Virus record (IMG/VR): IMGVR_UViG_3300033067_000567
Span: 1-32,449 of that record
DNA: 32,449 nt
Direction: 5' to 3' (one strand)
Origin: a virus
Taxonomy: Duplodnaviria > Caudoviricetes
This document shows positions 14,020-32,449 of this stretch, piece after piece (position 1 is the stretch's first letter; every line of letters starts with the position of its first letter). The notes below the pieces were generated by a model that did no database searches, had not been told where the DNA came from, and worked only from the letters and a program-made list of their open reading frames with translations. A program made the translations under genes and the position numbers.

Positions 14020-14463
14020 TTAGCTTTGTGCGGCGTGTGTTACTGCGCCACTGATACGAACCTCAACATCACTACTCACAACCTGATCGTCACTGGAATA
14101 ATCGGTGTCGAATTTGGCAACGAATCCGGTGAACGTGATTTCATGTCGGCCCGTTGCCGCGCCGTTGGGTCGAATGCGCCAGTTAACACTTGTGCTGTTG
14201 TTGAACGCAGACCACAGCACCGTTTGCGGGCGCGTGGTGTAGCCGTTGGTGTTGTTGTGCATCAACGTAAACGAGTATGTGTTTTCGGTCAGCCCTGGAA
14301 TGTAGGTGCGTGAGGTCGTGCCATAGCTGGTCGTTTCGGCCTCACCCACAGACTGAGAGGCTTTGCCCTGATTGGTGTATGTGGTGATGTCGTTCCACGT
14401 CAGGGCAGGGTTCTCATACTCAAGGGTAAGACTAGATGCGATAAATTCGCCACTGGTTGCCAT
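14020..14463 (-). CDS. major tail (tube) protein, paralog 2
   Basis: 147 aa, motif AETTSYGTTSRTYIPGL, SD GAGGT, directly upstream of the chaperone gene. Confidence 0.85.
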   Translation of the reverse strand: MATSGEFIASSLTLEYENPALTWNDITTYTNQGKASQSVGEAETTSYGTTSRTYIPGLTENTYSFTLMHNNTNGYTTRPQTVLWSAFNNSTSVNWRIRPNGAATGRHEITFTGFVAKFDTDYSSDDQVVSSDVEVRISGAVTHAAQS

Positions 14464-14475
14464 TGTGTTACCTCG

Positions 14476-14916
14476 TTAGAGAGATGAGTGGGTAATGTCC
14501 CCGCTGATTCTCAGTTCAATATCGCTGCTCACCGGCTGGTCGTCGTTGCTCTGGTCGGTGTCAAATTTTGAAATGAACGCGGTGAACGCCATTTGATGAT
14601 TGCCTGAGCCTGAGCCGTTCGGACGAACACGCCACGCCAGCGCTGTGCGGTTGGCGAAGAACCCCGCCAACAGCGTTTGTGGGCGCGATGCGTAAGCCGC
14701 TGTGTTGTTGTGCATGAGCGTAAACGAATACGTGTTCTCAATCAGGCCGGGGATATACGTTCGACTGGTCGTGCCGTATGACGTGGTTTCAGCCTCGCCA
14801 GCGCTCTGACTCACCTTGCCCTGATTGACATAGGTTTGAATCGCGTTCCATGTGGCTGACGGGTTCTCATACTCAATCGTCAACGATGACGCGATAAATT
14901 CGCCACTTACTGCCAT
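14476..14916 (-). CDS. major tail (tube) protein, paralog 1
   Basis: 146 aa, same motif, SD GAGGA. About 70% identical to the next gene by manual count. Confidence 0.85.
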   Translation of the reverse strand: MAVSGEFIASSLTIEYENPSATWNAIQTYVNQGKVSQSAGEAETTSYGTTSRTYIPGLIENTYSFTLMHNNTAAYASRPQTLLAGFFANRTALAWRVRPNGSGSGNHQMAFTAFISKFDTDQSNDDQPVSSDIELRISGDITHSSL

Positions 14917-16379: not shown

Positions 16380-16835
16380 CTACTTGCAAAACAGGTTGAG
16401 TGTGGTGGTTACAGGGTTGCTACCGAACTGCGTCAGCGAAGCGCGGACATAGTTGGCAGGCGGCACGAAGAACGTATAGAAATCGTTCTGCGCGGTCGTC
16501 ACGTTGCTAACCACGTTCGCAGCCGTCACCGCCGACGCGCTGTAGTTCACCCAGTTGCTGTTATCGTTGCTGCCTTGAAGCGTCAAGGTAATGTTGCTGG
16601 TTGATCCGCCCTGCGTCATCACGTAGTGGAGGCCACACTGGGCATACTGACCAATCGGCACGCTGCCGCTGGTTGCGCTCGCGGTCGTGACTTTGTTGAA
16701 CCACAGCGTTGCATTGCCAGACGCGGGGTTAGAGACGGTCACAGTGCCGGGAATCGTCAGCGCAGCGTTGACCGGGGCGAAGATCGCAAAGGCCAACGAC
16801 ACGGCGGCGATGATTGCATAAACTTTCTTGCTCAT
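16380..16835 (-). CDS. beta-sandwich (decoration/cement-like) protein with N-terminal signal peptide
   Basis: Directly after the capsid gene, SD GAGGTG. LTLQGSNDNSNW...NYVRA pattern. N-terminus MSKK, a hydrophobic core, then VNA-A. Confidence 0.65.
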   Translation of the reverse strand: MSKKVYAIIAAVSLAFAIFAPVNAALTIPGTVTVSNPASGNATLWFNKVTTASATSGSVPIGQYAQCGLHYVMTQGGSTSNITLTLQGSNDNSNWVNYSASAVTAANVVSNVTTAQNDFYTFFVPPANYVRASLTQFGSNPVTTTLNLFCK

Positions 16836-16868: not shown

Positions 16869-18815
16869 TTAGTGGGCCACGCCGGTGATGATTTCGCACG
16901 AAGCGGCACGCATCAGCGAGAAGTCAGCGCGGAGAATGGCGCGAATCAACGTCTGATCGTTGGCGAAGGCGCTGCCAGCGATGTTGCTGGACGCGAGTTC
17001 GAGCGATGAGCGGTTACCCAACACCCACTCATCACCACGCACAACGATGATGCTGGACGCGCTGCCGCTGGATGTGATGGAGGTCGTCTGATACACCGGC
17101 AAACCGAGGCGGGCGCTCATGCGGTCAGTCAAACCGTTGCCGAACATGTTCGGGTTGGTTTGCTGATTGGCTGAGGCAACATAGTCGCCAGAAGCGCCGA
17201 CGCGGGTCAGCAATGCTTTCAACGCCACTTCGGGGCGCATCACCACAGACACGCCATTCAGCGGCACTTTGGCAGCGGCCATACGGCCAAGCGCCTTGAG
17301 AATCGCGTCGTAGATGTTGTCAGCGCCGACAGCGGTCGAAGTGACACCGGCCTCGTTCAACAAGCCGGTCGGCTCGGTCGAAGTGCCAGCGCCAGCAAAT
17401 GCGGCGAGGTCATACGCCTCACCCATCTTGCGGGTGATGCCGTTGCGGATGAATGTCTCAATCGCGGGTGTGCTGTCTACCAAAAGCTCGTTGCTCACAG
17501 TGGCAATCGCGGTCAGCTTGCGGGCGGTGAGTGTCTTCTTGGCGGTCGTCGCGTCACCGGCAGATGTGGCCGAGTTGTTCTCAGCAGACCAACCAGCGCT
17601 AAAGGTGTTGATGGAGGGCATGTCGCAGACTGGCCCCGGCATTGGGAAGTTCATGCCGATTTTGCTGGCAACCACTTCCTGATACAGCGCGTCGATGACC
17701 ATGCTGGTCTGAATGCGCGGCACGAAATGCTCGCCCACGGCGCTACCGCTGGTGGTCGCCATTGCCTTGAACGCTTTCACCGCATCCGCGCTACCTTGGA
17801 ACTCAAGATCGCCCTCGCCGCTGGCAAGATTGAACTCAATGCTGCCCTTTGGCACAGCTTGCAAAGCCTTGACAGCCCACAGGAAGGGCATTGGCTCTGA
17901 CTTCTTGGTGATGACGGTCGGCGCGGTATACGCGGGGCGGCGGGCGGCAATCGACTTGACGGCCTTGCTCGCGGTCTCTTTGATAAGGGCGTGAACCTCA
18001 TCCTCGGTGAATGTCTTCACTGCGGGGACTTCGGGCTTGGCTGGCTCAGTGGGGGTTTCAACCACATCAGGCACGGCCTCTTGCGTGGCCTCGGCCACAA
18101 TTTGCTCAACGTTAATGTCGCTCATTTTTTGAATAACCTCAATGGATTTCGCCGCCGCTGGCTGTGCGCCTTCGGTCGGCTCTGCTGGAAACTCGCTCAT
18201 CATTTCGTCAAGCATGGCTTTGATGCTGGTAATCCGGTCACGATTGCGCCTCGCAAATGTGGCCCCAGCTTTCGCCGCGTCTGCCTCGCCCGATAGTTCG
18301 TCGAGTTGTTCACTGGTTAATGCTTTGGCCGCAGCCAGCGCGATTGCGCGCGGGTTCACCGCTGCGTCGGCTGTGTCTGCGTCCATCAGACTCATTGCAA
18401 AAATCGGCCAGTTCGTGACACGTCCGGGTTTCCCCACGATGCCCGCTGGCCGCACTAGATGGCTGCTGCTATCGCTACTGGCCCGCGCTCGGCCTTGTGC
18501 AGCGTCCGCGTGTATCTTCTGTGCAATGGATTTGGCCGCGTCCAGCGCCACGTCAAACACATGGCCGGTGATGCCGTTTAGGGTAGAGATGCCCTTGTAG
18601 ATGGCTGTGCCAATGCGCCCGACGGACTTGGACGCAATCTCCGCAAAGCCGTGATAGTGGTAGACGGGGATCGTATCGCCTAGCGACAGGTCAATATTGG
18701 TTGACGCATCAAACACTTGGCCCTGTCGGTCAGTGCCGAAGGGCAGGCCGACGATCTGTAATTTCAGGTCGCCGGTTGCTTTGATGGCTGATGTAACGGT
18801 GATTGCGTCAAACAT
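16869..18815 (-). CDS. fused prohead protease-scaffold-major capsid protein (HK97 fold)
   Basis: N-terminal protease-like region (PFGTDRQGQVF, YHYHG, ASSDS, WPIFAMSL), an acidic Pro-rich linker, and a C-terminal capsid region (WSAEN, RKLTAIATVSNELLVDS, GAGTSTEPTGLL, LGLPVYQT, FANDQTLIRAILRADF). Start moved to ATG 18815 because the listed start falls inside a terminator hairpin. Confidence 0.9.
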   Translation of the reverse strand: MFDAITVTSAIKATGDLKLQIVGLPFGTDRQGQVFDASTNIDLSLGDTIPVYHYHGFAEIASKSVGRIGTAIYKGISTLNGITGHVFDVALDAAKSIAQKIHADAAQGRARASSDSSSHLVRPAGIVGKPGRVTNWPIFAMSLMDADTADAAVNPRAIALAAAKALTSEQLDELSGEADAAKAGATFARRNRDRITSIKAMLDEMMSEFPAEPTEGAQPAAAKSIEVIQKMSDINVEQIVAEATQEAVPDVVETPTEPAKPEVPAVKTFTEDEVHALIKETASKAVKSIAARRPAYTAPTVITKKSEPMPFLWAVKALQAVPKGSIEFNLASGEGDLEFQGSADAVKAFKAMATTSGSAVGEHFVPRIQTSMVIDALYQEVVASKIGMNFPMPGPVCDMPSINTFSAGWSAENNSATSAGDATTAKKTLTARKLTAIATVSNELLVDSTPAIETFIRNGITRKMGEAYDLAAFAGAGTSTEPTGLLNEAGVTSTAVGADNIYDAILKALGRMAAAKVPLNGVSVVMRPEVALKALLTRVGASGDYVASANQQTNPNMFGNGLTDRMSARLGLPVYQTTSITSSGSASSIIVVRGDEWVLGNRSSLELASSNIAGSAFANDQTLIRAILRADFSLMRAASCEIITGVAH

Positions 18816-18904
18816 GGAAAACAAAAAGCGCGGTGTCTCATTTCGAGACACCGCGCAGGATTTGCTCTGGTGCGTTTTGGTTATTTAGTTGGTCGCTATT
18901 TTAC
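18816..18904 (-). promoter_or_regulatory. late leader cassette A: -10 box, conserved 20-mer, terminator hairpin
   Basis: TAAAAT (18898-18903), CCAGAGCAAATCCTGCGCGG (18851-18870), a perfect 12-bp stem GCGCGGTGTCTC/GAGACACCGCGC (18828-18856), then TTTTTGTTTTCC and the ATG. Confidence 0.8.
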
Positions 18905-19214: not shown

Positions 19215-19706
19215 TCAACCCTTCCCGCTCGTAATCTTCTCCGCCACGCGCAACGTCACGCGCTTGCCTACGCGGTCGGGTTTCGTCGCGGCCAACGCAC
19301 GCTCAAGGAAGTTATTCGGGCGCGTGCCGGGATGGTTCACGCGCTTGGCAAACACCACGCCACCGCCACTACTCACGAAGCGTAATACCTTTGCCTTGCG
19401 CGGCACAATGACGTGCCGCTTGCTGCCAAACAACACAGACTTAACGACCACCTCTGGCCGCGACTTGTTGCCCATTGTGACCTCTAGGTGAACGTTCTTC
19501 GTGCCAGCCTGCCGCGTGTTGATGCGGACGGTAGAGGCAAGCACGCCGGTTTTCTTCGGCGCTTCCTCTGCGATCTTGGCCCGCAGCACACGGCCATAGT
19601 CGCGCAAATCCTCGGTGGCGTAGTTAATGATCTGCTGCTGCGCTTTGGTAATGCGGCCCTTGATGCGCTCCAACTCATCAACGGTTATGGTAACTAACTG
19701 TGCCAT
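19215..19706 (-). CDS. HK97 gp10-like neck/tail-component protein
   Basis: Motifs APKKTGVLASTV and VNHPGTRPNNFLERAL. Confidence 0.85.
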   Translation of the reverse strand: MAQLVTITVDELERIKGRITKAQQQIINYATEDLRDYGRVLRAKIAEEAPKKTGVLASTVRINTRQAGTKNVHLEVTMGNKSRPEVVVKSVLFGSKRHVIVPRKAKVLRFVSSGGGVVFAKRVNHPGTRPNNFLERALAATKPDRVGKRVTLRVAEKITSGKG

Positions 19707-22462
19707 TAGTCCTCCAACATCACCCGCACATCAGCGGCCTTATAAAACGCCTCGCCAATCTTCAACACTGGCGCGTCAGTCGTAGCTTTGATGCCACCAT
19801 GAACATTGAACCGTTCCACCTTGTCAATCGTGCCGAGTTCAACGCCTACGCTATCGTAAGCCACACGGCCCACAAAATCAATCACCGGCATCAGCGCTTT
19901 ACCCGCTGCGGTCGCCGCGCTGTTGGCCGACGATACCGCGTCCGCCACTTGGTCGGCGGGTGTGCTTTGATTCAGGCGCTTGATCTGTTTGTCGATGGTG
20001 GTCGCCGCCTTATCTAGTTTCTCGCGTGCGGCCTGTGCCTCTGGCGTATCAACACCCTCCAAGCGCTTGAGTGCGTCGTCAATCGTGGCGCGTTGCTCAA
20101 CAGCTTTGTTAAGACGCTCTTTGCGCTTCTTTTCTTTCTCTGCGGCTTTCTGTTCATCCGTCTTTTTTGGTTTCTTAGCCTTCTTGCCCTTCTTCCCTTT
20201 CTTGCCCGCTGCGTTCTTCATGGCGCGGTCGATGATGGCCTGCCGTTTCGCGTCGTCTAATTCGGCCTTAGATTTGCGGTCGATGGGCGCACCATCCACG
20301 CTCGAAAACTTGCCGCCCTGATCGCGCTTGGTGTTGCCAGCCTTTGCCGCCGGGTCTTCGCTGTCCGTCTCGCCCTCGGCATCGCCTTCCATCGCGTCTT
20401 CTTCATCGGCCTCACGCTCTGCAATCGCCGCCGCGTCCAGTGCTGCCAATACCTCGCGCTCTACCGCCTCGGCCTCGGCTTCCATCTCCGCATCTTCCAT
20501 GTCCAGCGGTTCATCTTCGCCGTCAATGTCGGGCGGCTTGAGTAGGCCAGCGACATAGGACGGTAACGCGCAGGGCAACAGAAGCTTGACCATCGCATAC
20601 GCTTGGCCCTCGCTAATCAGCCCGCCGTTGTAGTTGTCGATGATGGTCTGCAATGAGGTTAGCGTCTCCGGTGTAATTCCCATATCTTCATCGTCCTCGG
20701 TTTCTGTTTCTGGCTGCTCCTGTTCGACTGGCTCTGGCGCGGGCTTTCGCAACAATACCTCTAGCGTTGCGTCGTCAACTTCTGGCATAGACATTCGTAT
20801 CATTGTCTGCGCCTGTTCTAGGTCTAGGTCGCCTTTGCGATACTGGCCCGCAATGACACGCGCTTGGATCATGCCGCTGCTGTTGGGCTTGGCCGCTTCG
20901 GGCTGCGCTGGCTCAGTCGGCACGTCCTGTATATCCTCTTTGATGTTGATTGTTTCGTCCGTGTCCTTAGCAATGAAATCCTCAACATCACTATCCGAAA
21001 TGGTTGGCGCGGTAAGGCGCAACATTACACGCGCCTGCCTGTCTGTTAGATTGCCTTGTGCGTATGACTCAGCCACGCCGCGCAAGTTCACCAACTGCGT
21101 AGAGGTCAGCGGCGATGCGGTCGCAGGGTTGACAATCTCGCCATCGGCGTTTGTGGTCTGTTCGGGCTGCGCTGGCTGGTCAGGTTGCCCGCCGCCCACA
21201 ATCAGCGTCACGTCATCGGCGGATGGGTTGCCCTCAATCTTCATTAGGCCGCGCTTCTCGCGTGCCTCGTTGATGGTGATAATGCCGCCCTGCAACTCAG
21301 CGACGGCGGTCTGCGCTTCGACGCTGTTGATTTCGGCGCGTTTCACTTCGTCCTCTTGCAGCGCCTCAACATCATCGAAACAAAACGCGAGGTAGTAGCC
21401 GTCCTCTTTGCTGCCCTCGTAGTCTGACCACAGCAAGTAATTGTTGAGCGATTCGGCCACCATCTGCGCCAACGGCACAATCTTGCCGCGCCAGAATTGC
21501 TTCATCTGCGCGTCAGCATTGGCAAGTTTGGAAGCATCCGAGTAGTCGCCCGCCACAGCAGGCGGCACGCCATACGCGGCCATGATTTCGTTCATCAGGC
21601 GCATTGAGCGTTGCTCGCGCTGCTGCTCTACGGCGGTCAGTTGGCCGCTTTCACGGTTCATCCCTTGCGGCAAAAAGCGATCATCGGCCATTGCGTCTGG
21701 ATCACGGTTCTTGGCGTTCCACTGAGCCATAAACTGCCGCGCATCCTCGTCGATCATATTGAAGTCCACGCCGATCACGCCGCCGCCCTTGCCGCCGTTG
21801 CGGTCGATGGCCTCCTGCGCCATGTCTGCCAGCGCATAGCGGTTGATTGCGGCCACGGCGCGGCTTGTGGGCGATGTGCAAATGAACGGATCGCGCAGCG
21901 ATGGGTAATAGATGCGGATCACATCCTCAATCGCATAGGTGTCAGTGCCGAGGTATTTATAGGCGGTCGGATAGCCGCGTGGGTCGCGTAGCATATCGAC
22001 CTGCAACGCGGGCAGGATGTGCAACTCTTGCGGCTCGCCGCCGCTTTCGGGGCGTAGCTTGTAGATGAGCCATTGGCCGAATACGTTTAGCTGCTCCATG
22101 CCCGCACGTTTGAAGCTGGCCTCATCCATATAAAACGGGTTGATGGTCTGCAACAACTCAAGGATAGGATGGCTATCAATGCGGGTCGGCTCATCCTCTT
22201 TCTTCGCCGCTTTCTTGTAGAGCTTAAGCGGTGTCAACGCCACAGCGTCAGCAATGGCACTCACGCAGTTGCCCGCCCACACGTTGTATGTGGCGGCATC
22301 GCTCCACCCATACGGCTCATCGCTGTAAAGCCGAAGCGCATTGCGGCCAGCGCCCAAGCCCGTGATCCAAGACGATGTGGTAGCCCACGATTGCAGGCGC
22401 GGCGGCTGGTTGGCTCCGGCTTTCGCGGCAAATAGTCCCTTGATGTTGTTAATTATTCCCAT
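19706..22462 (-). CDS. portal protein with ~500-aa C-terminal extension
   Basis: Follows TerL. HK97-type portal motifs HPILELLQTINP, EIMAAYGVPPAVAG and GIITINEAREKRGL lie within the first ~420 aa. Confidence 0.92.
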   Translation of the reverse strand: MGIINNIKGLFAAKAGANQPPRLQSWATTSSWITGLGAGRNALRLYSDEPYGWSDAATYNVWAGNCVSAIADAVALTPLKLYKKAAKKEDEPTRIDSHPILELLQTINPFYMDEASFKRAGMEQLNVFGQWLIYKLRPESGGEPQELHILPALQVDMLRDPRGYPTAYKYLGTDTYAIEDVIRIYYPSLRDPFICTSPTSRAVAAINRYALADMAQEAIDRNGGKGGGVIGVDFNMIDEDARQFMAQWNAKNRDPDAMADDRFLPQGMNRESGQLTAVEQQREQRSMRLMNEIMAAYGVPPAVAGDYSDASKLANADAQMKQFWRGKIVPLAQMVAESLNNYLLWSDYEGSKEDGYYLAFCFDDVEALQEDEVKRAEINSVEAQTAVAELQGGIITINEAREKRGLMKIEGNPSADDVTLIVGGGQPDQPAQPEQTTNADGEIVNPATASPLTSTQLVNLRGVAESYAQGNLTDRQARVMLRLTAPTISDSDVEDFIAKDTDETINIKEDIQDVPTEPAQPEAAKPNSSGMIQARVIAGQYRKGDLDLEQAQTMIRMSMPEVDDATLEVLLRKPAPEPVEQEQPETETEDDEDMGITPETLTSLQTIIDNYNGGLISEGQAYAMVKLLLPCALPSYVAGLLKPPDIDGEDEPLDMEDAEMEAEAEAVEREVLAALDAAAIAEREADEEDAMEGDAEGETDSEDPAAKAGNTKRDQGGKFSSVDGAPIDRKSKAELDDAKRQAIIDRAMKNAAGKKGKKGKKAKKPKKTDEQKAAEKEKKRKERLNKAVEQRATIDDALKRLEGVDTPEAQAAREKLDKAATTIDKQIKRLNQSTPADQVADAVSSANSAATAAGKALMPVIDFVGRVAYDSVGVELGTIDKVERFNVHGGIKATTDAPVLKIGEAFYKAADVRVMLED

Positions 22463-22466
22463 GTTG

Positions 22467-23678
22467 TTATCCGTATGCGAATCGCTGTCGAACGTTGCTC
22501 CATGCCAGCGCCAAACTCATTACCGTATCGTCGTGCATCCCGTCCGGCGCGTTGTATTTCACGCCGCCCGATGGCGCACGCTGTGACTCATACGCCTCTA
22601 GTTCACCAATCAATATTGGGTCGTTCGGTATCTTGATTGCGCCACGCTCAAACGATGCGGCCAACTCCTCAATGATGTCGGCCTTCGTGGTCGCGGTCGT
22701 CGTGAAATCTCTAACCTTCACACCCATGCGCCGCAGCATGTCGTTGTTGGGTTTACCCATTGCGTTTTCTTCGGCCACGACCACACGCACGCCGAAGCGC
22801 TCACAGGTGGCCTTGATGCGCTCACGCTGTAGGCTGTAATCAATGCCGTTGAATCGGTCGGTGTAAACCAGTGCCTTATCAGTGCTGTCGATGATGGACA
22901 ACACCGTATAGTCATTCGACAACGCCCAATCTAAACCGGCAACATAGGTGTGATTCTCTAGGGGCTTGGTGTGTCGCTCTGCGGTGGCACAGGCGCGAAC
23001 GTTGCGAAACACGCCGCCGCCATCGTCTACAAACTCGGCCAACCATTCTTGCTTAAACGTGCGCTCGGTGACACGCTCGCGGGCCATCTCAAACGCCTTG
23101 CGTATGTTTGGGTTAGGGTTGGCTGAGGTCGGCGCGGTAAATGCTGCCGTGTGCCTGCCGTCGCTCATGCCGCGCACCCACTCACGCCAGAACCAGTTAC
23201 GGCCCTTCGGCGTGCTAATCATTAGCAGTTTGCCGTTGCGGTCGGCCAGTGTCGGCAGAATCACATCGCTATAGGTTTCTTCTGAGACTTGCGCGGCCTC
23301 GTCAATGATGACCACATCGAACGACTCACCGCGTAGCCCCACGTCATTGTCAGCGCTATACACACCCAGCCAACCGCCGCTAGGGAATGTAATAATGCGG
23401 TCGGACTTGTGAACGTCTACGCCCTTCGCCTGCGCTACCTGCGACTCGGCAAAGCGCCACACGGGGCGGCTGTTCTTATACGTAGGCACTACCCACGCCA
23501 CCGCCGCGCCATAGTCTGCACAGGTAAGAGAGTAAACCCCACTCATAAATGTTTTGCCCCAGCGTCTACCATTGGCAATGACCTTAATCTGCGCCGGATG
23601 CGTTAGGATTTTGGTCTGATCGCTTCGCAATGGTGGCAACTGCGGTTTCGTGATTAAAGACTTGCTGCCTTGTTTCAA
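22467..23678 (-). CDS. terL: terminase large subunit
   Basis: Walker A GRRWGKT, Walker B VIIDEAA, ISTPKG, nuclease motifs GLDWA and HDDTVMSLALA. Likely start is the TTG at 23678, after SD GGAGGG inside terS. Confidence 0.95.
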   Translation of the reverse strand: MKQGSKSLITKPQLPPLRSDQTKILTHPAQIKVIANGRRWGKTFMSGVYSLTCADYGAAVAWVVPTYKNSRPVWRFAESQVAQAKGVDVHKSDRIITFPSGGWLGVYSADNDVGLRGESFDVVIIDEAAQVSEETYSDVILPTLADRNGKLLMISTPKGRNWFWREWVRGMSDGRHTAAFTAPTSANPNPNIRKAFEMARERVTERTFKQEWLAEFVDDGGGVFRNVRACATAERHTKPLENHTYVAGLDWALSNDYTVLSIIDSTDKALVYTDRFNGIDYSLQRERIKATCERFGVRVVVAEENAMGKPNNDMLRRMGVKVRDFTTTATTKADIIEELAASFERGAIKIPNDPILIGELEAYESQRAPSGGVKYNAPDGMHDDTVMSLALAWSNVRQRFAYG

Positions 23679-24018
23679 TTGGCCCTCCGTCCGGCCCGCT
23701 CCACTCGCTGCGCTCCACATACCCGCGATTCTTGCCGATGGTCTTGAGCGTGAAGCACACGGCCCAGCCCTCTTTGGCCGTGACCGCCGCTTTCAATGCC
23801 GTCTCTGCCACGTCTAGCAATTCGCCGCGTGAGTTATCAACCACTTCGCGCACTCTCGCAGATTTCTCCATGCGCCGATAGATCGCAGACGGAGCGCAGC
23901 CGAGGTGCTTTGCGGCAAGGTAAACCATGCCGTTGAACGAGGTGAGCGCCTTACACATTTCGTCGTCCGTGTAGCGCGTCGTCCTCTTTTTATTTGTTGC
24001 GTTTGTTGCGTCGGCCAT
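23584..24018 (-). CDS. terS: terminase small subunit (HTH)
   Basis: HTH segment VYLAAKHLGCAPSAIYRRM and LKTIGKNRGYVERSEWSGPDGGPI. Directly upstream of and overlapping terL. Confidence 0.8.
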   Translation of the reverse strand: MADATNATNKKRTTRYTDDEMCKALTSFNGMVYLAAKHLGCAPSAIYRRMEKSARVREVVDNSRGELLDVAETALKAAVTAKEGWAVCFTLKTIGKNRGYVERSEWSGPDGGPIETRQQVFNHETAVATIAKRSDQNPNASGAD

Positions 24019-24021
24019 GTT

Positions 24022-25299
24022 CTACGCTCCCTCGGTGATGCGCTGCGGTTGTTTGCCGGTGGCGGTAGACCAACGTTCTAGGGCCACGCTGACGTATTCA
24101 GGGCTTATCTCCATTGCGCGGCATTTGCGGTTTAGTTGCTCGCAGGCGATTAGGGTTGTGCCGCTGCCACTGAACCCGTCAAAAACAACTGAGTCTTTCA
24201 GTGTTGAAAATTCAATGGGCTTTTTAATAACCTCAATGGGTTTTTCGGTTGGGTGTTCAGTGGTGTGGCGTGGCATTGTGATCCCCCACCAATTTAGCGC
24301 ATGTGTTCCGTCTGGATAATTGCAAACATGCTTGCCACGCACTGCATAGGCCACAAGTTCTGTCGCCCATGTCCAATGGCGCTTAGATAATGACGGTGCT
24401 GGATTTGGCTTGCACCAAACACAGTAGCTGTAGAACTTCGCCCATCCTTTCATCCAATCCCATATTTGCTGAATAAGAAAATGTGATGTGTAAATATATA
24501 CAACCGACGATTCGGAAAGTATTGCCTCTAAAGTAAGAAACATATTTTTGGGGTCAAAGTTCTTATCCCATTCCGCCTCAGCCAGCGTCTTTGACGACCG
24601 ATAATGGGTCGGCGCATCCTTTGCAAATACACTTGTATCCGATGCCATGTTGTAAGGCGGGTCTGTCACAACCGCGTCCGCCTTCTCCCCCGCCATCAGC
24701 CTCGCCACATCCTCCGCGCTCGTACTGTCGCCGCACATCAGCCGATGGTTGCCCAACTGCCACACGTCGCCGCGCTTCACCTGCCATTTCTGTTGCAACT
24801 CTGCGGCCTTATCAATCTGCGGCTCTACATCCTCAACCGCTGCCCCGCCGCCAGCGCCGTAGTCCAGTCCGTTGTCCTGCGCCAACTCCGCCAACATCGC
24901 TTGCAATCCCGCCTCGCCCGTGTTCACGTCACGCAACAGCGCGTCTAGTTGCTGTTTGTCATACGCTGCCATTGCCGCGATTGGGTCAAGGGATGCAAGG
25001 GCCAGCTTTTCTTCCGCCTCGCTCAACTCAACCTCAACGTAAGGCACTGGCGTTTCATCGCCCAGCTTCAACGCCTCGGCAATACGAGCGTGGCCGTCTA
25101 CCACGTTGCCGGTGGTCTTGTTCACAATGACGTTTTGAATCCACCCAATCTCACGCAATGAACCGGTGAGCGCTTCTTGCTGCGCCTTCGGGTGTATACG
25201 TGCATTGGCGGGATTTGCCATGAACTGCGACGCGGGCATTGTGCCGTTGCCGACGATGCGGTTGCGCCATTCCTGCGGCACTGCTTTCTTCTTCGCCAT
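24022..25299 (-). CDS. ParB-like N-terminal domain fused to N6-adenine/N4-cytosine DNA methyltransferase
   Basis: ParB-like NPANARIHP...VVDGHARI, then HRLMCGDS, motif IV DPPY, HPTEKP and motif I FSGSGTT (beta-class order). Confidence 0.92.
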   Translation of the reverse strand: MAKKKAVPQEWRNRIVGNGTMPASQFMANPANARIHPKAQQEALTGSLREIGWIQNVIVNKTTGNVVDGHARIAEALKLGDETPVPYVEVELSEAEEKLALASLDPIAAMAAYDKQQLDALLRDVNTGEAGLQAMLAELAQDNGLDYGAGGGAAVEDVEPQIDKAAELQQKWQVKRGDVWQLGNHRLMCGDSTSAEDVARLMAGEKADAVVTDPPYNMASDTSVFAKDAPTHYRSSKTLAEAEWDKNFDPKNMFLTLEAILSESSVVYIYTSHFLIQQIWDWMKGWAKFYSYCVWCKPNPAPSLSKRHWTWATELVAYAVRGKHVCNYPDGTHALNWWGITMPRHTTEHPTEKPIEVIKKPIEFSTLKDSVVFDGFSGSGTTLIACEQLNRKCRAMEISPEYVSVALERWSTATGKQPQRITEGA

Positions 25300-25613
25300 T
25301 ACGCCACCACGACCACATCCAGCGCCGGTTTAGCCGGTGCGTATGTGGCATTTGTAAATGTCACGATGAGCCTGAACTTACCCACTGACGCGCTTAAGAA
25401 CTTCGGTAGGGTGATGGTGTTCGTGGCAACGGTCGGTGAGCCGGTTAGTACTGTGCCAGACACATCATTGGCACTGTTGCCCATGTCCAGCGCCACAACG
25501 CTGATGCTCGTTGGACTTCCGCCGTAGTTGGTGGTGTCGATGGCCCAATACACACCCTCACCTGCGCGGGCGTATTTGGGTGATTCGACAACGAATAATT
25601 CCTGTTGCTGCAT
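25299..25613 (-). CDS. Ig-like small virion protein, candidate fibre adaptor
   Basis: 104 aa with an all-beta pattern. Last gene of the fibre-like cassette. Confidence 0.55.
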   Translation of the reverse strand: MQQQELFVVESPKYARAGEGVYWAIDTTNYGGSPTSISVVALDMGNSANDVSGTVLTGSPTVATNTITLPKFLSASVGKFRLIVTFTNATYAPAKPALDVVVVA

Positions 25614-25615
25614 AG

Positions 25616-27214
25616 TTAATCAGTAAGGGTTAGGTCAACATCACGCAACGGTAAGCGAGTGAGTGTGGATCGCTCTGGCAATGTCACGCCCATGTCACGC
25701 GCGGAAACGTTGATTAGCACATTGCGCGGCGGGAGGGTGGCGGAGAGGTCGCGGGCCGCGAGAGTCAGCACAACATAGGTGTAAACCGCGCCACTCAAGA
25801 CCGAACTGGACAGCGTAGCCGTGCCAAGCGTCTGCGTCAGCGTGCCAACGATGGCAACCGATGCCGCGCTACTGCTTACCACTTCGCCCAGCGTCACCGA
25901 TACCGCGCCCGTAACAGGCGCAACCGCCGAACTACTCACAGTCGCGCTGCCAAGCGTCTGCGATAGGCTGAGGTCAATCAGCGCCGACGCACTAGACGAT
26001 AGGCTGGCTGCGTCCAGCGTGGCCGTTGTGCTGGCAGTGTTCGCTACGGCGACATTGCTCGAAAGTGCCACCGCGTCCAGCGTTGATGACACTGTGCCGG
26101 TCACTAAAACGGTGGCCGTGCTGCTCAACGTGGCCGCGCCAAGCGTCTGATTGAGCGTTAAGCCCGACTCCTGTGTGGCGGTGCTGTTTAGCGTCACCGC
26201 GCCGAGTGTTTGGCCGAGGCTCGCGGCGATGGCAACCGATGCGCTAGACGATGCCGTAAGCGTGCCGAGTGTGGCGGTGAGTGTTGCTGATACCTCTACA
26301 GCCGCGCCACTGGATAGCGCGGCATTGCCAAGCGTGCTATCTACCGCCCCACTCACCCCCGCCGCTGCATTGCTGCTCAGTGTGGCCGCATCTAGGGTTG
26401 CATTAACGCTGGCCGTATTCGCGCTACCGATGGTGGCCGATAGGGTCGCTTCGCCAAGTGTTTGGGCGAGGCTGGCTGTATTGGATACTGTCGCCGCGCT
26501 CGAAAGCGTGGCCGCGTCTAGCGTGACGGTTAATGTGCCATTGCTGGCAACTGCCGCGCTGCTTGATAGGGTTACGCTGTCGAGGGTGGCCGTGAGGCTT
26601 GCGCTATTGCTGACCGTGCCAGTGCTAGAAAGCGTCGCAGCATCTAGCGTTTGGGTGAGTGTTGCGCCAACTGAGACGATGGCCGTGCTGGATGCGGTCA
26701 GCGCATCTAGTGCCTGCGTCAGTGCGGCATTGTTCGCAACGGTGGCACTGGACGACAGCGCAACCACGCCCAACGCGACATTGACCGCCCCACTGTTGGA
26801 TACCGTTGCGGCACTTGTGAGTGTGGCCGTCCCTAGCGTAGCTGATAGGCTGGCCCCAACTGATACCGTCGCACTACTGGACGATGTAACCGCGCCGAGC
26901 GTTTGATTGAGGGTTGCCCCAATGCCAACGGTAGCCGATGCGCTCACCGTGGCCGCGTCAAGCGTCTGTGCCAATGCACCAGCAACATCCGCAACGGCAC
27001 TAGACGACACTGTGGCGGCCCCCAGCGTTGCAGTGAGCGTGGCACTATTACTGACCGTGACACTGCTAGAACTGGTCGCAGCGCCAAGGGTGGCCGTGAC
27101 ACTCGCGGCCACATCAACCGTTGCGCCACTCGACAGTGTGACACTCCCCAGCGTCGCCGTTAGGGACGCGGTGAGGTCAGATGATGCCGGTAACGGCTGA
27201 TAAAACCAAGACAT
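25616..27214 (-). CDS. Ala/Ser/Thr/Val-rich repeat protein, candidate fibre scaffold
   Basis: 532 aa with about 20 repeats of ~22 aa (xLxxTL[G/D]xATLSSxATV) and C-terminal 9-aa [T/L]LPxR-type repeats. Confidence 0.75.
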   Translation of the reverse strand: MSWFYQPLPASSDLTASLTATLGSVTLSSGATVDVAASVTATLGAATSSSSVTVSNSATLTATLGAATVSSSAVADVAGALAQTLDAATVSASATVGIGATLNQTLGAVTSSSSATVSVGASLSATLGTATLTSAATVSNSGAVNVALGVVALSSSATVANNAALTQALDALTASSTAIVSVGATLTQTLDAATLSSTGTVSNSASLTATLDSVTLSSSAAVASNGTLTVTLDAATLSSAATVSNTASLAQTLGEATLSATIGSANTASVNATLDAATLSSNAAAGVSGAVDSTLGNAALSSGAAVEVSATLTATLGTLTASSSASVAIAASLGQTLGAVTLNSTATQESGLTLNQTLGAATLSSTATVLVTGTVSSTLDAVALSSNVAVANTASTTATLDAASLSSSASALIDLSLSQTLGSATVSSSAVAPVTGAVSVTLGEVVSSSAASVAIVGTLTQTLGTATLSSSVLSGAVYTYVVLTLAARDLSATLPPRNVLINVSARDMGVTLPERSTLTRLPLRDVDLTLTD

Positions 27215-27225
27215 TCAGGTTGCGC

Positions 27226-27624
27226 TTATGCGTTTGCGTCGGTCAGGGTGAAGGTTGAAACGGTGATGGTTTGTCCCGATGCAATCGACGTGTTGTCGAT
27301 AATCATGTCTGTACCAGATGTGCCGACCGTGCCTTGAATATGGCAGGTTGACCCGCCCGAATCCTTGATGCGGAAGTGAGCTGCCGTACCAGTGCCGGAC
27401 GCGGCCACTGACCACGTGCCCGACTTGGCCTTGCTGCCTGACGATGCCGCTGCCATCCAGTCAGACGGAAGGGCAAGGGTTGCCAACAATGACCCGCTAT
27501 CGGCAGTTGCACAATCCGCCGGGGCTGACCCAGTGCGGATATAGAGGTTTGCGCTCGTGCCGACTGTGGTTTCGATTGCATCCAATCGGGCATTGCGTGC
27601 TGAAACTGATAACTGAATTGCCAT
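27226..27624 (-). CDS. conserved phage virion structural (fibre subunit-like) protein
   Basis: ARNARLDAI...LYIRTGSAPA...LLATL...GTAAHFRI...QGTVG...IASGQTITVSTFT, a pattern recognised from phage structural proteins. SD AGGAG. Confidence 0.75.
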   Translation of the reverse strand: MAIQLSVSARNARLDAIETTVGTSANLYIRTGSAPADCATADSGSLLATLALPSDWMAAASSGSKAKSGTWSVAASGTGTAAHFRIKDSGGSTCHIQGTVGTSGTDMIIDNTSIASGQTITVSTFTLTDANA

Positions 27625-27643
27625 TTGTAAAAACTCCTGTGTA

Positions 27644-27991
27644 TCAAACTGCTCTAACGCTGGCGATGATGGTGCGATCCGTGCCAGCGAGTTTTTTAAC
27701 TGTTACATCCCATCCGTGCATCACCATCAGTGCAGGCAGGACGAAATACCGCGCTTGCGCTCCGGTCAGAATCGCCTCATAGATCACGCCCTGCGTGCCA
27801 CCGCTGATGACTTTCTCATAGACGCGAATCTGGTATTGATCACCCGCCGCCATGTTTTGCAGGCTGAACCATGCCTGTATGGTGTAGTCGGTCGTCTGCG
27901 GTGAACCGCTGGAATAGGTTGTCGCAGTCGGGACGCTGATTTCGGTCGTGCCGACTGAGGCGTTGAGGGTGAATAGTTCTGATGGGGCCAT
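27644..27991 (-). CDS. hypothetical beta-rich virion protein
   Basis: 115 aa, tightly packed within the cassette. Confidence 0.65.
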   Translation of the reverse strand: MAPSELFTLNASVGTTEISVPTATTYSSGSPQTTDYTIQAWFSLQNMAAGDQYQIRVYEKVISGGTQGVIYEAILTGAQARYFVLPALMVMHGWDVTVKKLAGTDRTIIASVRAV

Positions 27992-27993
27992 AG

Positions 27994-28839
27994 TTACCTG
28001 CCTGCGTAGACGATGCCAGAATAGTTGCTGTTGAGTGAACCGCTGGATTGCGCCCGCATGTAAAGCCCTACCCCGCTTGGCGCGTCACGTTCGCAGCCAT
28101 CGGCAGGCGCGAGCGCGTTGTTGAGACGGTTGGCGGTATCGCAGCCAAATGGTTGATCCGCAATGATGATGTCGTAGTTTGATCCATCACCGATAGCAAA
28201 CTCAACGTAATACAGGCGATCAGATGTGGACGATGTGTTAAACCCAAACCCCTGTTGCCAATACCAATAGGCCGCGCTGGTTGTGCCAATGCTTGTCCAT
28301 GATCCATCGTTGGTCGTGCCGGGGGTGATGGTTGTGCCGCAACTTGAGCCAGAAGTCACACCAAACGCAACAACCTCAGTAATAATTCGATGCGCCTCTG
28401 GATTCTTGGGCAACCCAAACAGCGTAATCATCACGTTACAGGTTGACACGGTGGCATTGTTGACGCTGGCCCGAATCGCAACCGTCGCGCCTGATTTGAT
28501 GCGCAATGGGAAGTAGTAATAAATCCCGCCCTTGTTCGGCGTGATTGCCATACAGCCAATGAGGTCGGGGATTTTGACCGTATAACTTGTGCCGCCCGCG
28601 TCATCCACACCAATGTCTACCAGCGTATCGCGTGCGTTGCTGCTGCTGCTGTTGGCGTTAATCTGAATCAGTATGCCGCACGCCTCATTCGCAATCGCGC
28701 TAAACGCCTGCGCCCAACTGCCCTTGCTATTATTCCCCGGCGTACACTGTGTGCCAACCGCCGTGGTGCTTGGGCGCGTTGACCCCTGATTGGTGATACG
28801 CCAGCCAAAGTCTCGGCCATCGCTAAATGTATTAAGCAT
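27994..28839 (-). CDS. hypothetical two-domain beta-sandwich protein (candidate fibre tip)
   Basis: 281 aa with an internal duplication: GTQCTPGNNSKGSW...DIGV...Y and GTTITPGTTNDGSW...EFAIG...Y. Confidence 0.7.
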   Translation of the reverse strand: MLNTFSDGRDFGWRITNQGSTRPSTTAVGTQCTPGNNSKGSWAQAFSAIANEACGILIQINANSSSSNARDTLVDIGVDDAGGTSYTVKIPDLIGCMAITPNKGGIYYYFPLRIKSGATVAIRASVNNATVSTCNVMITLFGLPKNPEAHRIITEVVAFGVTSGSSCGTTITPGTTNDGSWTSIGTTSAAYWYWQQGFGFNTSSTSDRLYYVEFAIGDGSNYDIIIADQPFGCDTANRLNNALAPADGCERDAPSGVGLYMRAQSSGSLNSNYSGIVYAGR

Positions 28840-28993
28840 AGAGCCACCACACGGTTACACCTACAATGGCGGCACAAAACGCGCACACGGCAACAATCAA
28901 CACGGCCCCGCCGATGAGGTCGAATTTATTAAATGGCATTGCCGGTTTAGTTGTAGGAGACTCGCGGCGATCTGTGCTGGTTATTTGTGCCAT
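28832..28993 (-). CDS. small single-TM protein (53 aa), not in ORF track
   Basis: MAQITSTDRRESPTTKPAMPFNKFDLIGGAVLIVAVCAFCAAIVGVTVWWLYA. Its stop overlaps the next start (ATGCTTAA). Confidence 0.6.
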   Translation of the reverse strand: MAQITSTDRRESPTTKPAMPFNKFDLIGGAVLIVAVCAFCAAIVGVTVWWLYA

Positions 28994-29003
28994 TGTCTAC
29001 GCC

Positions 29004-29079
29004 GGAAAACGAAAAGCGGCTCATGCCTATACAGGCACAAGCCGCGCAGGATTTGCTCTGGATTGTGTCGCAATTTTAC
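29004..29079 (-). promoter_or_regulatory. late leader cassette B: -10 box, conserved 20-mer, terminator hairpin
   Basis: TAAAAT (29073-29078), CCAGAGCAAATCCTGCGCGG (29042-29061), a 13-bp stem GCGGCTTGTGCCT/AGGCATGAGCCGC with two G-U pairs, then TTTTCGTTTTCC. Confidence 0.8.
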
Positions 29080-29264
29080 CGCTGAACTGCGGTTAGATTG
29101 ATGCTTTCGATAACTCGTTCGGCCCATACGCGGTTGTCTTTGATGTTGACTTGTTCAAATCGAACAACGCCCGATTGGGTCAATTTCATGGCCTCTCTGA
29201 GTAATTCCACCCACGCTTTCTCTAGTGGAGTAAGCATTTCGGGCGTTTTGGTTTGTTGTGTCAT
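29076..29264 (-). CDS. small protein (62 aa), loosely DUF2292/YezD-like
   Basis: Helix followed by short beta strands (SGVVRFEQVNIKDNRVWAERVIESI). Its stop codon forms part of the -10 box of cassette B. Family resemblance judged by eye only. Confidence 0.6.
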   Translation of the reverse strand: MTQQTKTPEMLTPLEKAWVELLREAMKLTQSGVVRFEQVNIKDNRVWAERVIESINLTAVQR

Positions 29265-31058: not shown

Positions 31059-31134
31059 GGAAAACAAACAAGCGACGACACCCGTTAGGATGCCGTCGCG
31101 GTGACAGCGAAATATTGAATTGGCTTGATTATAC
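31059..31134 (-). promoter_or_regulatory. late leader cassette C: -10 box and terminator hairpin
   Basis: TATAAT (31128-31133), a 12-bp stem GCGACGGCATCC/GGGTGTCGTCGC with two G-U pairs (31072-31099), TTGTTTGTTTTCC, then the holin SD. Confidence 0.75.
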
Positions 31135-31347: not shown

Positions 31348-31625
31348 AGAGTGATTTCATAGGCGGATACGCTCGCCATCCGCCCGTTCATGGTTGGTAT
31401 CGGTTTGTTCCCCCCGAAACGCGCCTTCCCAATCTCAATCAATTTGCGAATCTCATCACGCGCTCTGTCGATATTTACCCTGCGCTTTGCCGCGTATTCG
31501 CGCACCGTCACCAGATGCGCCGCGCCCTCTACTGCGTCCTGATTGACGCTTGCCAACAGCGCTTGCAGTTCGCTTGCTGTTAGCCCCGGCAGTATCTCCG
31601 GTTCCGTCTGTTTTTGGCGTGCCAT
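31344..31625 (-). CDS. small winged-HTH-like protein
   Basis: SD GAGG, ATG at 31625. VTVREYAAKRRVNIDRARDEIRKLIEIG followed by a beta-hairpin. Confidence 0.6.
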   Translation of the reverse strand: MARQKQTEPEILPGLTASELQALLASVNQDAVEGAAHLVTVREYAAKRRVNIDRARDEIRKLIEIGKARFGGNKPIPTMNGRMASVSAYEITL

Positions 31626-32449
31626 GTTCAATCCTCACTATGTGCCTATGGTCTCTAATGACTTCATACTGAACGAGTTCATGCGCCGTCGTTCCATCGT
31701 CATAGATGCGTATCAACCAACAGCCAATGTCCGGCGGCTGATGCGGTCGGATGCGGTGTCCGTGGCTGGTTGATAGCTGCCAACATCCAGACGTTAGCGC
31801 GGTGGTATTCGTGCGGGTGTAATGCCCAAACGCGATGCGGTGTGTATGCCCTCGCAGAACGTAGCGCGGAATCGGTAGCCCGTTAAACATCGCCTCTACT
31901 GCCTGATCCGCCGCCTCTGCGCTGGCTGCGTTGTTTCTATTGCGATCTAACCCGCTGCCCCGCCCATGATGCGCAATGTTGAACTGCACCCCGCCAATTT
32001 CAGCCAGTGCCACCGGCCACACATGCAGCGCGGTATCGGGCGGGCGCACAACGTTCTTGCCTTGCGCACTAAACGTTTTGGCGATGATGTTTTCTATGCG
32101 CCCCTGCAAGCCCACATGTGCTTCCGTGCCACTGATGAACATCAGCCAGTTACACCATGCCGCGAGCGGGTCAATTGCCTCCACTCCTATGTCCGCGTGA
32201 TCCTCCTGCGATGCGCTGACTAGCTGAACCGTGCCGTGATGGTTGCCCTCGCTCAAATCACCGTTGAAAAGCCCAAACACTTTCACGCCCGAAAGCGCCT
32301 CACGTTTTACCCGCTGCCCTAAATCCTGCCAGCGCTCCCATAGCCAGCCCTGTGCCCTGTTCTGCCGAATCTCTAAGCCGTCGGCATTAACCCATTTCGG
32401 CGGGAATAGCGCAGTGCTGCCCCCACAATGCAAATCTCCGATGTCTACG
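31456..32449 (-). CDS. calcineurin-like metallophosphoesterase, 5'-truncated
   Basis: The frame is open to the window edge (VDIGDLHCGG). Motifs DxH, NGDLSEG, GTEAH, AHHG and RGHTH. Confidence 0.85.
   Translation of the reverse strand, partial: VDIGDLHCGGSTALFPPKWVNADGLEIRQNRAQGWLWERWQDLGQRVKREALSGVKVFGLFNGDLSEGNHHGTVQLVSASQEDHADIGVEAIDPLAAWCNWLMFISGTEAHVGLQGRIENIIAKTFSAQGKNVVRPPDTALHVWPVALAEIGGVQFNIAHHGRGSGLDRNRNNAASAEAADQAVEAMFNGLPIPRYVLRGHTHRIAFGHYTRTNTTALTSGCWQLSTSHGHRIRPHQPPDIGCWLIRIYDDGTTAHELVQYEVIRDHRHIVRIEHGTPKTDGTGDTAGANSKRTASAVGKRQSGRSRGRGASGDGARIRGKAQGKYRQSA

Follow-up and report, generated by a model that had tools for sequence, protein, structure and literature searches.

The window analysed here is the whole of a 32,449-base virus record, in which tail, capsid, portal and terminase genes were assigned to the minus strand using PHROGs and Pfam; all window features described below lie on that strand. 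Completeness was estimated at 32% for this record and 43% for a longer record of the same phage. Both are fragments, and a further regulator may therefore be missing from view. Farther upstream, the longer record also encodes a CI-like repressor together with a replication initiator, making it likely that the phage is temperate; we infer that its host belongs to the Chloroflexota. The early region of the longer record also encodes a 398-aa protein of repeated helix-turn-helix-like units (L027, 3885-5081; no PHROG match), which is possibly a DNA-binding regulator.

Three leaders, termed A, B and C, are considered. The first gene behind leader A encodes the major capsid protein (16869-18815; PF05065, E=2.7e-29, residues 372-642; phrog_10). 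It starts with the ATG at 18815, and the long N-terminal part before the PF05065 region is probably a fused prohead protease. The ATG directly follows a terminator U tract without a Shine-Dalgarno-like sequence (18813-18827), and the TTTTTGTTTTCC-ATG junction is the same in L017-L020. Behind leader B lies a presumed single-transcript operon (19215-28993, PHROGs and Pfam) for a virion protein, an Ala/Ser/Thr-rich repeat protein, a DNA methyltransferase, an HTH protein, the terminase large subunit and the portal. The portal gene (19706-22462, 918 aa) has a portal-family match in its first 527 residues only, the remainder matching nothing, and a 532-aa Ala/Ser/Thr/Val-rich protein with a period of 21 residues (63 nt) and no family match is encoded at 25616-27214. 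Elsewhere, three short major-tail-protein-like genes lie at 14020-14916 and 16380-16835, two of them in tandem with exact 16-17-nt stretches in common, and an open frame at 31456-32448 contains metallophosphoesterase-like motifs by eye and has no family match. Abutting leader B is a 62-aa gene (29076-29264), the last gene of cassette C.

A repeated 20-mer forms part of a predicted hairpin that overlaps a terminator

A sequence-only reading of this DNA had noted that the 20-mer CCAGAGCAAATCCTGCGCGG occurs exactly at 18851-18870 and 29042-29061. It is the sole exact repeat of at least 18 nt in the window, where it has no third copy within 3 mismatches (chance expectation 0.01; two matches in 0/100 shuffles). 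As described there, both copies enter the 5′ arm of a terminator, and the hairpins concerned (18856-18828 and 29045-29016) are the two top-listed terminator-like hairpins. The block GTAAAAT(A/T)GCGAC is likewise common to both leaders, starting at 18904 and 29079, with spacers to the 20-mer of 21 and 5 nt. As a shared -10/discriminator block, however, it was only partly conserved: a closer relative (L209) keeps the exact 20-mer unchanged but has GCGAC altered, so that only TAAAAT(W) is conserved in relatives. By sequence match, the -10-like hexamers TAAAAT at 18898-18903 (leader A) and 29073-29078 (leader B, where the 62-aa gene has its stop codon within the hexamer) would have promoter activity, and the hexamer is kept in 7/7 relative-group leaders of the family alignment described below (A2).

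The small stem-loop proposed at the base of the terminator is present, but the predicted fold is larger, with a lower stem that uses 9-10 nt of the terminator arm. Hairpin A (18848-18873, holding the 20-mer at 18851-18870) folds at -8.6 kcal/mol and hairpin B (29036-29067, holding that at 29042-29061) at -8.4 kcal/mol; they score 35.6 and 31.9 bits with a covariance model that had both in its training set. Each consists of a lower stem, an internal loop of AGA opposite GC, a 3-bp stem and a 5-nt AANNN loop. The lower stem is GCACC/GGUGU in hairpin A and extended, CACAA/UUGUG, in hairpin B; the flanks of the two copies differ, yet in both they lengthen this stem. Hairpin A is kept in L017-L020. 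The 3′ strand of the hairpin doubles as the 5′ arm of the adjoining intrinsic terminator, which has a 12-13-bp stem and a U tract: terminator A (18818-18856, stem 18856-18828, -24.1 kcal/mol) has 9 nt in common with hairpin A, and terminator B (29006-29045, 13-bp stem 29045-29016, -22.6 kcal/mol) has 10 nt in common with hairpin B. Since these bases are needed by both structures, only one is predicted to fold. When the leaders were folded stepwise, the hairpin formed first and was displaced once the 3′ arm of the terminator was present. Contigs from RNA libraries (4 runs, one study) had low, even cover without strand or ends, may derive from DNA, and carry nothing on expression.

An accessory motif, AACTAAATA (AAYTRAATA), lies between the -10 hexamer and hairpin A (18882-18890) and recurs in the family. 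Defined after seeing the data, AAYTRAATA was found within 1 mismatch upstream of 15/45 elements and 0/61 chance loci (shuffled mean 1.8); it is present in leaders A and C (31113-31121) and absent from leader B.

Leader C (31072-31133) was delineated from sequence and predicted folds, and comprises TATAAT, AATTCAATA (31121-31113), a rival hairpin (31108-31092) and a terminator (31099-31072). It had been said to lack the motif and is indeed outside the A/B hairpin family: after hairpins A and B, the next covariance-model score in the window was 15.7 bits, inside a gene. The TCGC..GCGA pairing suggested to sequester its terminator arm does fold (-3.8 kcal/mol), but it is weaker than the rival GCUGUC-ACCGC-GACGGC, which folds at -7.3 kcal/mol alone and -8.8 kcal/mol in its prefix and overlaps the terminator. 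No homologue of leader C was found beyond the same phage. The different rival hairpin and the missing covariance-model match make different control of cassette C plausible, although "lysis genes" is a putative label for it: its genes are membrane-type by hydropathy and have no family match, to lysis families or others. If the product of the 62-aa gene, which ends this cassette, is the factor acting on A and B, transcription of C would come ahead of theirs.

The hairpin fold is conserved in phages and bacterial genomes

Lack of conservation in related phages had been set beforehand as the observation that would speak for a neutral duplication, and was examined in loci found by the capsid protein alone (6 loci, one being the same phage). 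The structure proved to be conserved. In 4 of the 5 other loci the element precedes the capsid gene, and in two it is also at the leader-B position; in L021 (53% identity) it is absent before the capsid gene. The apical 3-bp stem is kept in 8/8 copies from 5 related phages via compensatory changes (GCA/UGC, GCG/CGC, UGG/CCA and GUA/UAC), while the exact 20-mer is in none of these relatives. A scan of viral contigs with exact 16-mers returned 15 loci, one of which was the same phage and 14 of which had no leader layout.

A pattern search that put no constraint on the apical stem found 88 viral loci. A fully paired apical stem was seen in 12/22 matches with a well-formed terminator versus 7/67 others, 7 of those 12 being this phage or its relatives. 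The full layout was present at 10/40 loci from GTDB genomes (8 Chloroflexota and 2 Bacillota), and added searches gave further copies. Judged by motif and predicted fold, the same hairpin is present in otherwise unrelated phages.

Alignment A2 contains 45 copies from phages and from Chloroflexota and Bacillota genomes; chance matches and near duplicates were left out, as were L209 and L181, a copy with a bulge. Copies had to show an unbroken stem followed by a terminator-like stretch, so apical pairing and terminator overlap are partly selected for. Two pairs just outside CC/GG, which no search pattern covered, are nevertheless maintained: pair 8:29 is paired in 41/45 copies, with 13 double changes and 5 pair types, and pair 7:30 in 33/45, with 21 double changes. 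Covariation over the whole structure was 0.359 compared with 0.139 when shuffled (0/500 reached it) and at most 0.106 in slid controls, the counts being inflated by related, non-independent sequences. The conserved core is CC-AGA-stem-AANNN-stem-GC-GG, and the CC/GG pairs become UC/GA in two copies. Mean energies are -9.6 kcal/mol for the hairpin and -25.2 kcal/mol for the terminator (found in 44/45). A -10-like hexamer precedes 18/37 first or single copies, 0/8 second tandem copies and 6/61 chance loci, with the element 11-27 nt after it. Roughly half of the genes scanned behind the hairpins have no family match; the others encode terminase subunits (the small subunit among them), head protease, portal, ParB/methylase and endolysin.

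Within one phage, 4/13 pairs of copies are identical and the difference can reach 7 of 20 bases; between phages, 48/977 pairs are identical. Exact identity is thus common but not required, and in these alignments the conserved feature is the RNA fold rather than the exact letters. Pairing, including G-U, is kept while letters vary. The sequence-only reading was right to see here a regulatory element associated with the terminators of the leaders, and the RNA binding site that it proposed is likely.

Rfam 15 gave no family match in the window at E≤1 and, on 18 related loci, only one SAM and one cobalamin riboswitch. A covariance-model search of 150 Chloroflexota genomes yielded 28 new matches that were read, of which one (L263) resembles a real copy with a weak tail; the others had no overlapping terminator by eye and were taken as chance.

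Small-protein genes recur upstream of the element

The 62-aa gene ends 14 nt before copy B of the 20-mer, its stop codon inside the -10 hexamer, and is a candidate for encoding the antiterminator protein; its position and layout are DUF2292-like. It differs from its L209 counterpart at 23 of 189 bases, 19 of these 23 changes being synonymous, and 12/13 listed differences from a related contig fall on third positions; by these patterns the gene is under purifying selection. The AlphaFold model (pLDDT 78) comprises a helix (13-28) and a beta-hairpin (strands 36-42 and 45-50). Homologues abut the element in L017, L020, L200, L201 and L209, and stay beside it while the downstream gene varies among relatives. 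The family is small, with 12 proteins in one search and 8 matches in another, two being repetitive long proteins.

No relevant Pfam, PHROG or NCBIfam match, and none to PF10055, was found for the 62-aa protein. HHalign aligned its family with DUF2292 at full length and in register at a probability of about 1% (score 13.2-13.8, equalled by 5/60, 1/50 and 0/50 shuffles in three rounds), which is not significant; the protein would at best be a remote DUF2292 relative. Fold searches with the model gave nothing usable (best E=0.42 in BFVD, best Z=3.1 in the PDB), and the ESM Atlas returned only unnamed clusters (0.80-0.83). In an annotated phage collection there was no informative match for two DUF2292-like proteins or for leader-B DNA, and hence no cultured phage with the element was found.

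Across the family, a small-protein gene lies at most 700 nt upstream of 25/45 copies, compared with 0/56 chance-match loci (four small-protein profiles, leave-own-locus-out, at least 10 bits); as neighbours of these same elements supplied three of the four profiles, the count reports recurrence and not independent discovery. The 25 genes are 8 of DUF2292/YezD type, 12 tandem DUF2292-like and 5 of the window's own type. The group of L080, L123, L124, L192, L197 and L210 is DUF2292 (HHalign 95.6%, E=1e-8), with single-sequence PF10055 matches below the cut-off for L080 (E=0.004) and L123 (E=0.068); L172 and L205 are members outside the training set. In the tandem group (80-120 aa) the two halves match DUF2292 at 77% (E=2e-5) and 46% (E=2e-4), each unequalled in 50 shuffles, and the modelled protein runs helix-strand-strand twice; a fold search with this model gave nothing usable (best Z=4.8). 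Seven of the 12 tandem-type genes sit between two tandem hairpin copies.

The other 20/45 copies have no recognised small gene upstream. Eight of them are the first of two copies that have a small gene between them, and 3 are capsid leaders whose phage carries the gene elsewhere; the remainder are unexplained, several lying on fragments. None of the small-protein profiles matched the 92-aa gene that precedes leader A or the 69-aa gene that precedes leader C.

Some bacterial DUF2292 genes are followed by a sister hairpin

Of 50 PF10055 loci fetched from Chloroflexota, Bacillota and Gammaproteobacteria, 45 were used, once 2 loci of unpublished genomes, 2 that were too short and a duplicate had been removed. 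A sister hairpin with a UGA/AG loop and a 4-bp apical stem was present at most 250 nt downstream of the gene in 17/45 loci versus 1/90 control windows, using a pattern written after seeing some of the loci, and 14 of the 17 overlap a terminator. The phage covariance model does not detect it; on sequence and predicted structure, the two hairpins have their architecture in common but are different sequence families. Genes behind the sister hairpin-terminators include cysH, sat, cysD and nifB, and in Bacillus a DUF2292 gene and sister hairpin precede cysH. According to PMC3596284, OscA is co-transcribed with a sulfate-binding protein gene and required for chromate resistance. The Pseudomonas locus L227 has no sister hairpin.

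Several loci showed further arrangements. A SAM riboswitch (L234, 1290-1700) or a cobalamin riboswitch (L255, 1170-1700) is followed by the DUF2292 gene, the sister hairpin-terminator and then cysH or an unannotated gene, an instance of stacked regulation. In Bacillota (L247-L251 and L260) two DUF2292 units occur per chain, with a conserved acidic C-terminal tail. L253 (1312-2307) has a DUF2292 gene, a variant hairpin-terminator and then a phage-type sigma factor gene (phrog_1190). A Chloroflexota genome (L213, G244:C23:222308-222385) has a weak DUF2292 match followed by TATAAT, a different short hairpin, a long terminator and a membrane-protein gene.

Discussion

Pairing that is kept through compensatory changes indicates that the element is very probably an RNA antiterminator exclusive with the terminator. 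Taken together, these results point strongly to a conserved RNA attenuator, an RNA switch, at phage late leaders; that the adjacent small phage protein is its trigger is a less secure proposal, which we hold to be somewhat probable. Leaders A and B each present a promoter-like hexamer, the conserved hairpin on the 20-mer and the overlapping intrinsic terminator. By default, termination is likely to prevail (about -23 versus -8.5 kcal/mol). Binding of the AGA/GC internal loop by a small phage protein, likely the one encoded at 29076-29264 (62 aa), would then allow the packaging and capsid genes to be read. The two leaders would depend on a single protein acting in trans, which would explain why leader A has no small gene of this kind beside it.

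The switch could instead be real and have another trigger (a further phage factor encoded beyond this fragment, a host factor or kinetic leakiness), with the small gene a co-inherited neighbour. The marginal DUF2292 match of the 62-aa protein, the incompleteness of the record, the 20 copies without a recognised upstream gene and the 398-aa repeat protein upstream in the longer record all leave room for this. It is made rather unlikely by the constant place of the small gene at leader B in relatives whose downstream genes differ, and by DUF2292-related genes flanking the hairpin in unrelated phages and the sister hairpin in bacteria.

The nut/boxB-like site of the sequence-only reading, at which a protein would join RNA polymerase and confer processive terminator resistance with AAYTRAATA as a boxA-like helper, has in its favour the recurrence of that motif upstream of 15/45 copies, a short stem-loop with an A-rich loop and the long late operons behind the element. 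We think it quite improbable, since selection keeps the lower stem exclusive with the terminator and each terminator has its own overlapping copy, the layout of the ribonucleic antiterminator (RAT). Moreover, at 8 tandem loci a second terminator carries its own copy and no -10 hexamer (0/8), which would be needless for a processive mechanism, and leader B is without the accessory motif.

The second earlier proposal, that a phage repressor or activator recognises a DNA operator (or roadblock site) lying shortly after the promoter, would fit an identical 20-mer occurring twice, its position 11-27 nt after the -10 hexamer and the CI-like repressor of the longer record. It appears highly improbable, because pairing persists where the bases themselves change, G-U pairs occur on the transcribed strand, the invariant part is asymmetric (AGA versus GC), and copies in one phage are mostly non-identical. 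A recent neutral duplication of a leader fragment, to which the exact identity of the two copies could be owed through copying or conversion, has a negligible chance of accounting for a structure conserved in relatives and unrelated phages and for a 20-mer unchanged in L209 beside a diverged gene and an altered GCGAC, and may be conceivable for the identity only.

Returning to the protein-triggered RNA switch, we give an even chance to the broader proposition that DUF2292/YezD/OscA-like mini-proteins, putatively acting as dimers or single-chain tandem repeats, form an undescribed family of RNA-binding antiterminators that phages use on the AGA/GC hairpin and bacteria on the sister hairpin. If so, temperate phages of Chloroflexota and Bacillota would use a mini-protein and this hairpin as a late-gene switch, with positive feedback where the small gene sits between two gated leaders, and the sister hairpin would control operons for sulfur metabolism and nitrogen fixation, at some loci behind a SAM or cobalamin riboswitch. 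The targets of known phage late switches are RNA polymerase and promoter DNA, so that a RAT-like RNA switch operated by a protein of 45-65 residues would solve the problem differently. It would also give a molecular function to the widespread domain of unknown function DUF2292/YezD/OscA, and offer synthetic biology a very small protein-RNA transcription switch.

Antitermination by lambda N/nut (boxA/boxB), lambda Q, AlpA, Xp10 P7 and HK022 put acts on RNA polymerase, by way of either a promoter DNA site, as for Q and AlpA, or an RNA site separate from the terminator. As in those systems, phage or prophage genes here are gated by a terminator just behind a promoter. Unlike in them, every terminator here is overlapped by the element, which covaries as the fold alternative to it; in particular, at both window copies and the homology-found copies the site is not separate from the terminator as it is in lambda nut, and AAYTRAATA (15/45 copies) is unlike lambda boxA. 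ANTAR, HutP and GlpP are antiterminators in which a protein stabilises an RNA structure overlapping the terminator. That overlap recurs here and protein stabilisation is predicted, but neither twin hexaloop hairpins, UAG repeats nor, among the proteins scanned, a match to such a protein family was seen.

The DUF2292/YezD/OscA loci (PF10055, NF033785) resemble the phage arrangement in that 8 phage hairpin copies have a DUF2292 gene upstream, and differ in the sister hairpin, with UGA/AG and a 4-bp apical stem in place of AGA/GC and 3 bp. In the literature searched, which included parts of two motif catalogues, neither an RNA-binding or antitermination role for these proteins nor the hairpin was described. 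No match to the motif came from the PMC10690425 material searched, and the hairpin may be one of the unnamed candidates of that catalogue or of PMC5737381.

The closest likeness is to the RAT of the BglG/SacY/LicT systems. According to PMC5393181, the LicT antiterminator is about 30 nt long with 6-10 nt in common with the 5′ arm of the terminator; the phage hairpins measure 26 and 32 nt, with 9 and 10 nt of overlap. Both have a weak hairpin with one or more internal loops, a variable apical loop and a stronger terminator, and in the phage a small protein is predicted to stabilise the hairpin. The sequences differ, however, and the phage hairpin has one conserved AGA/GC loop region compared with the two defined internal loops of RAT; it would control late genes, whereas RAT controls sugar operons. 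No Pfam match to CAT or PRD domains was found among the window and neighbour proteins scanned, the record of this phage being incomplete. With the RAT layout but a different sequence and protein, the phage hairpin would work like RAT without being one.
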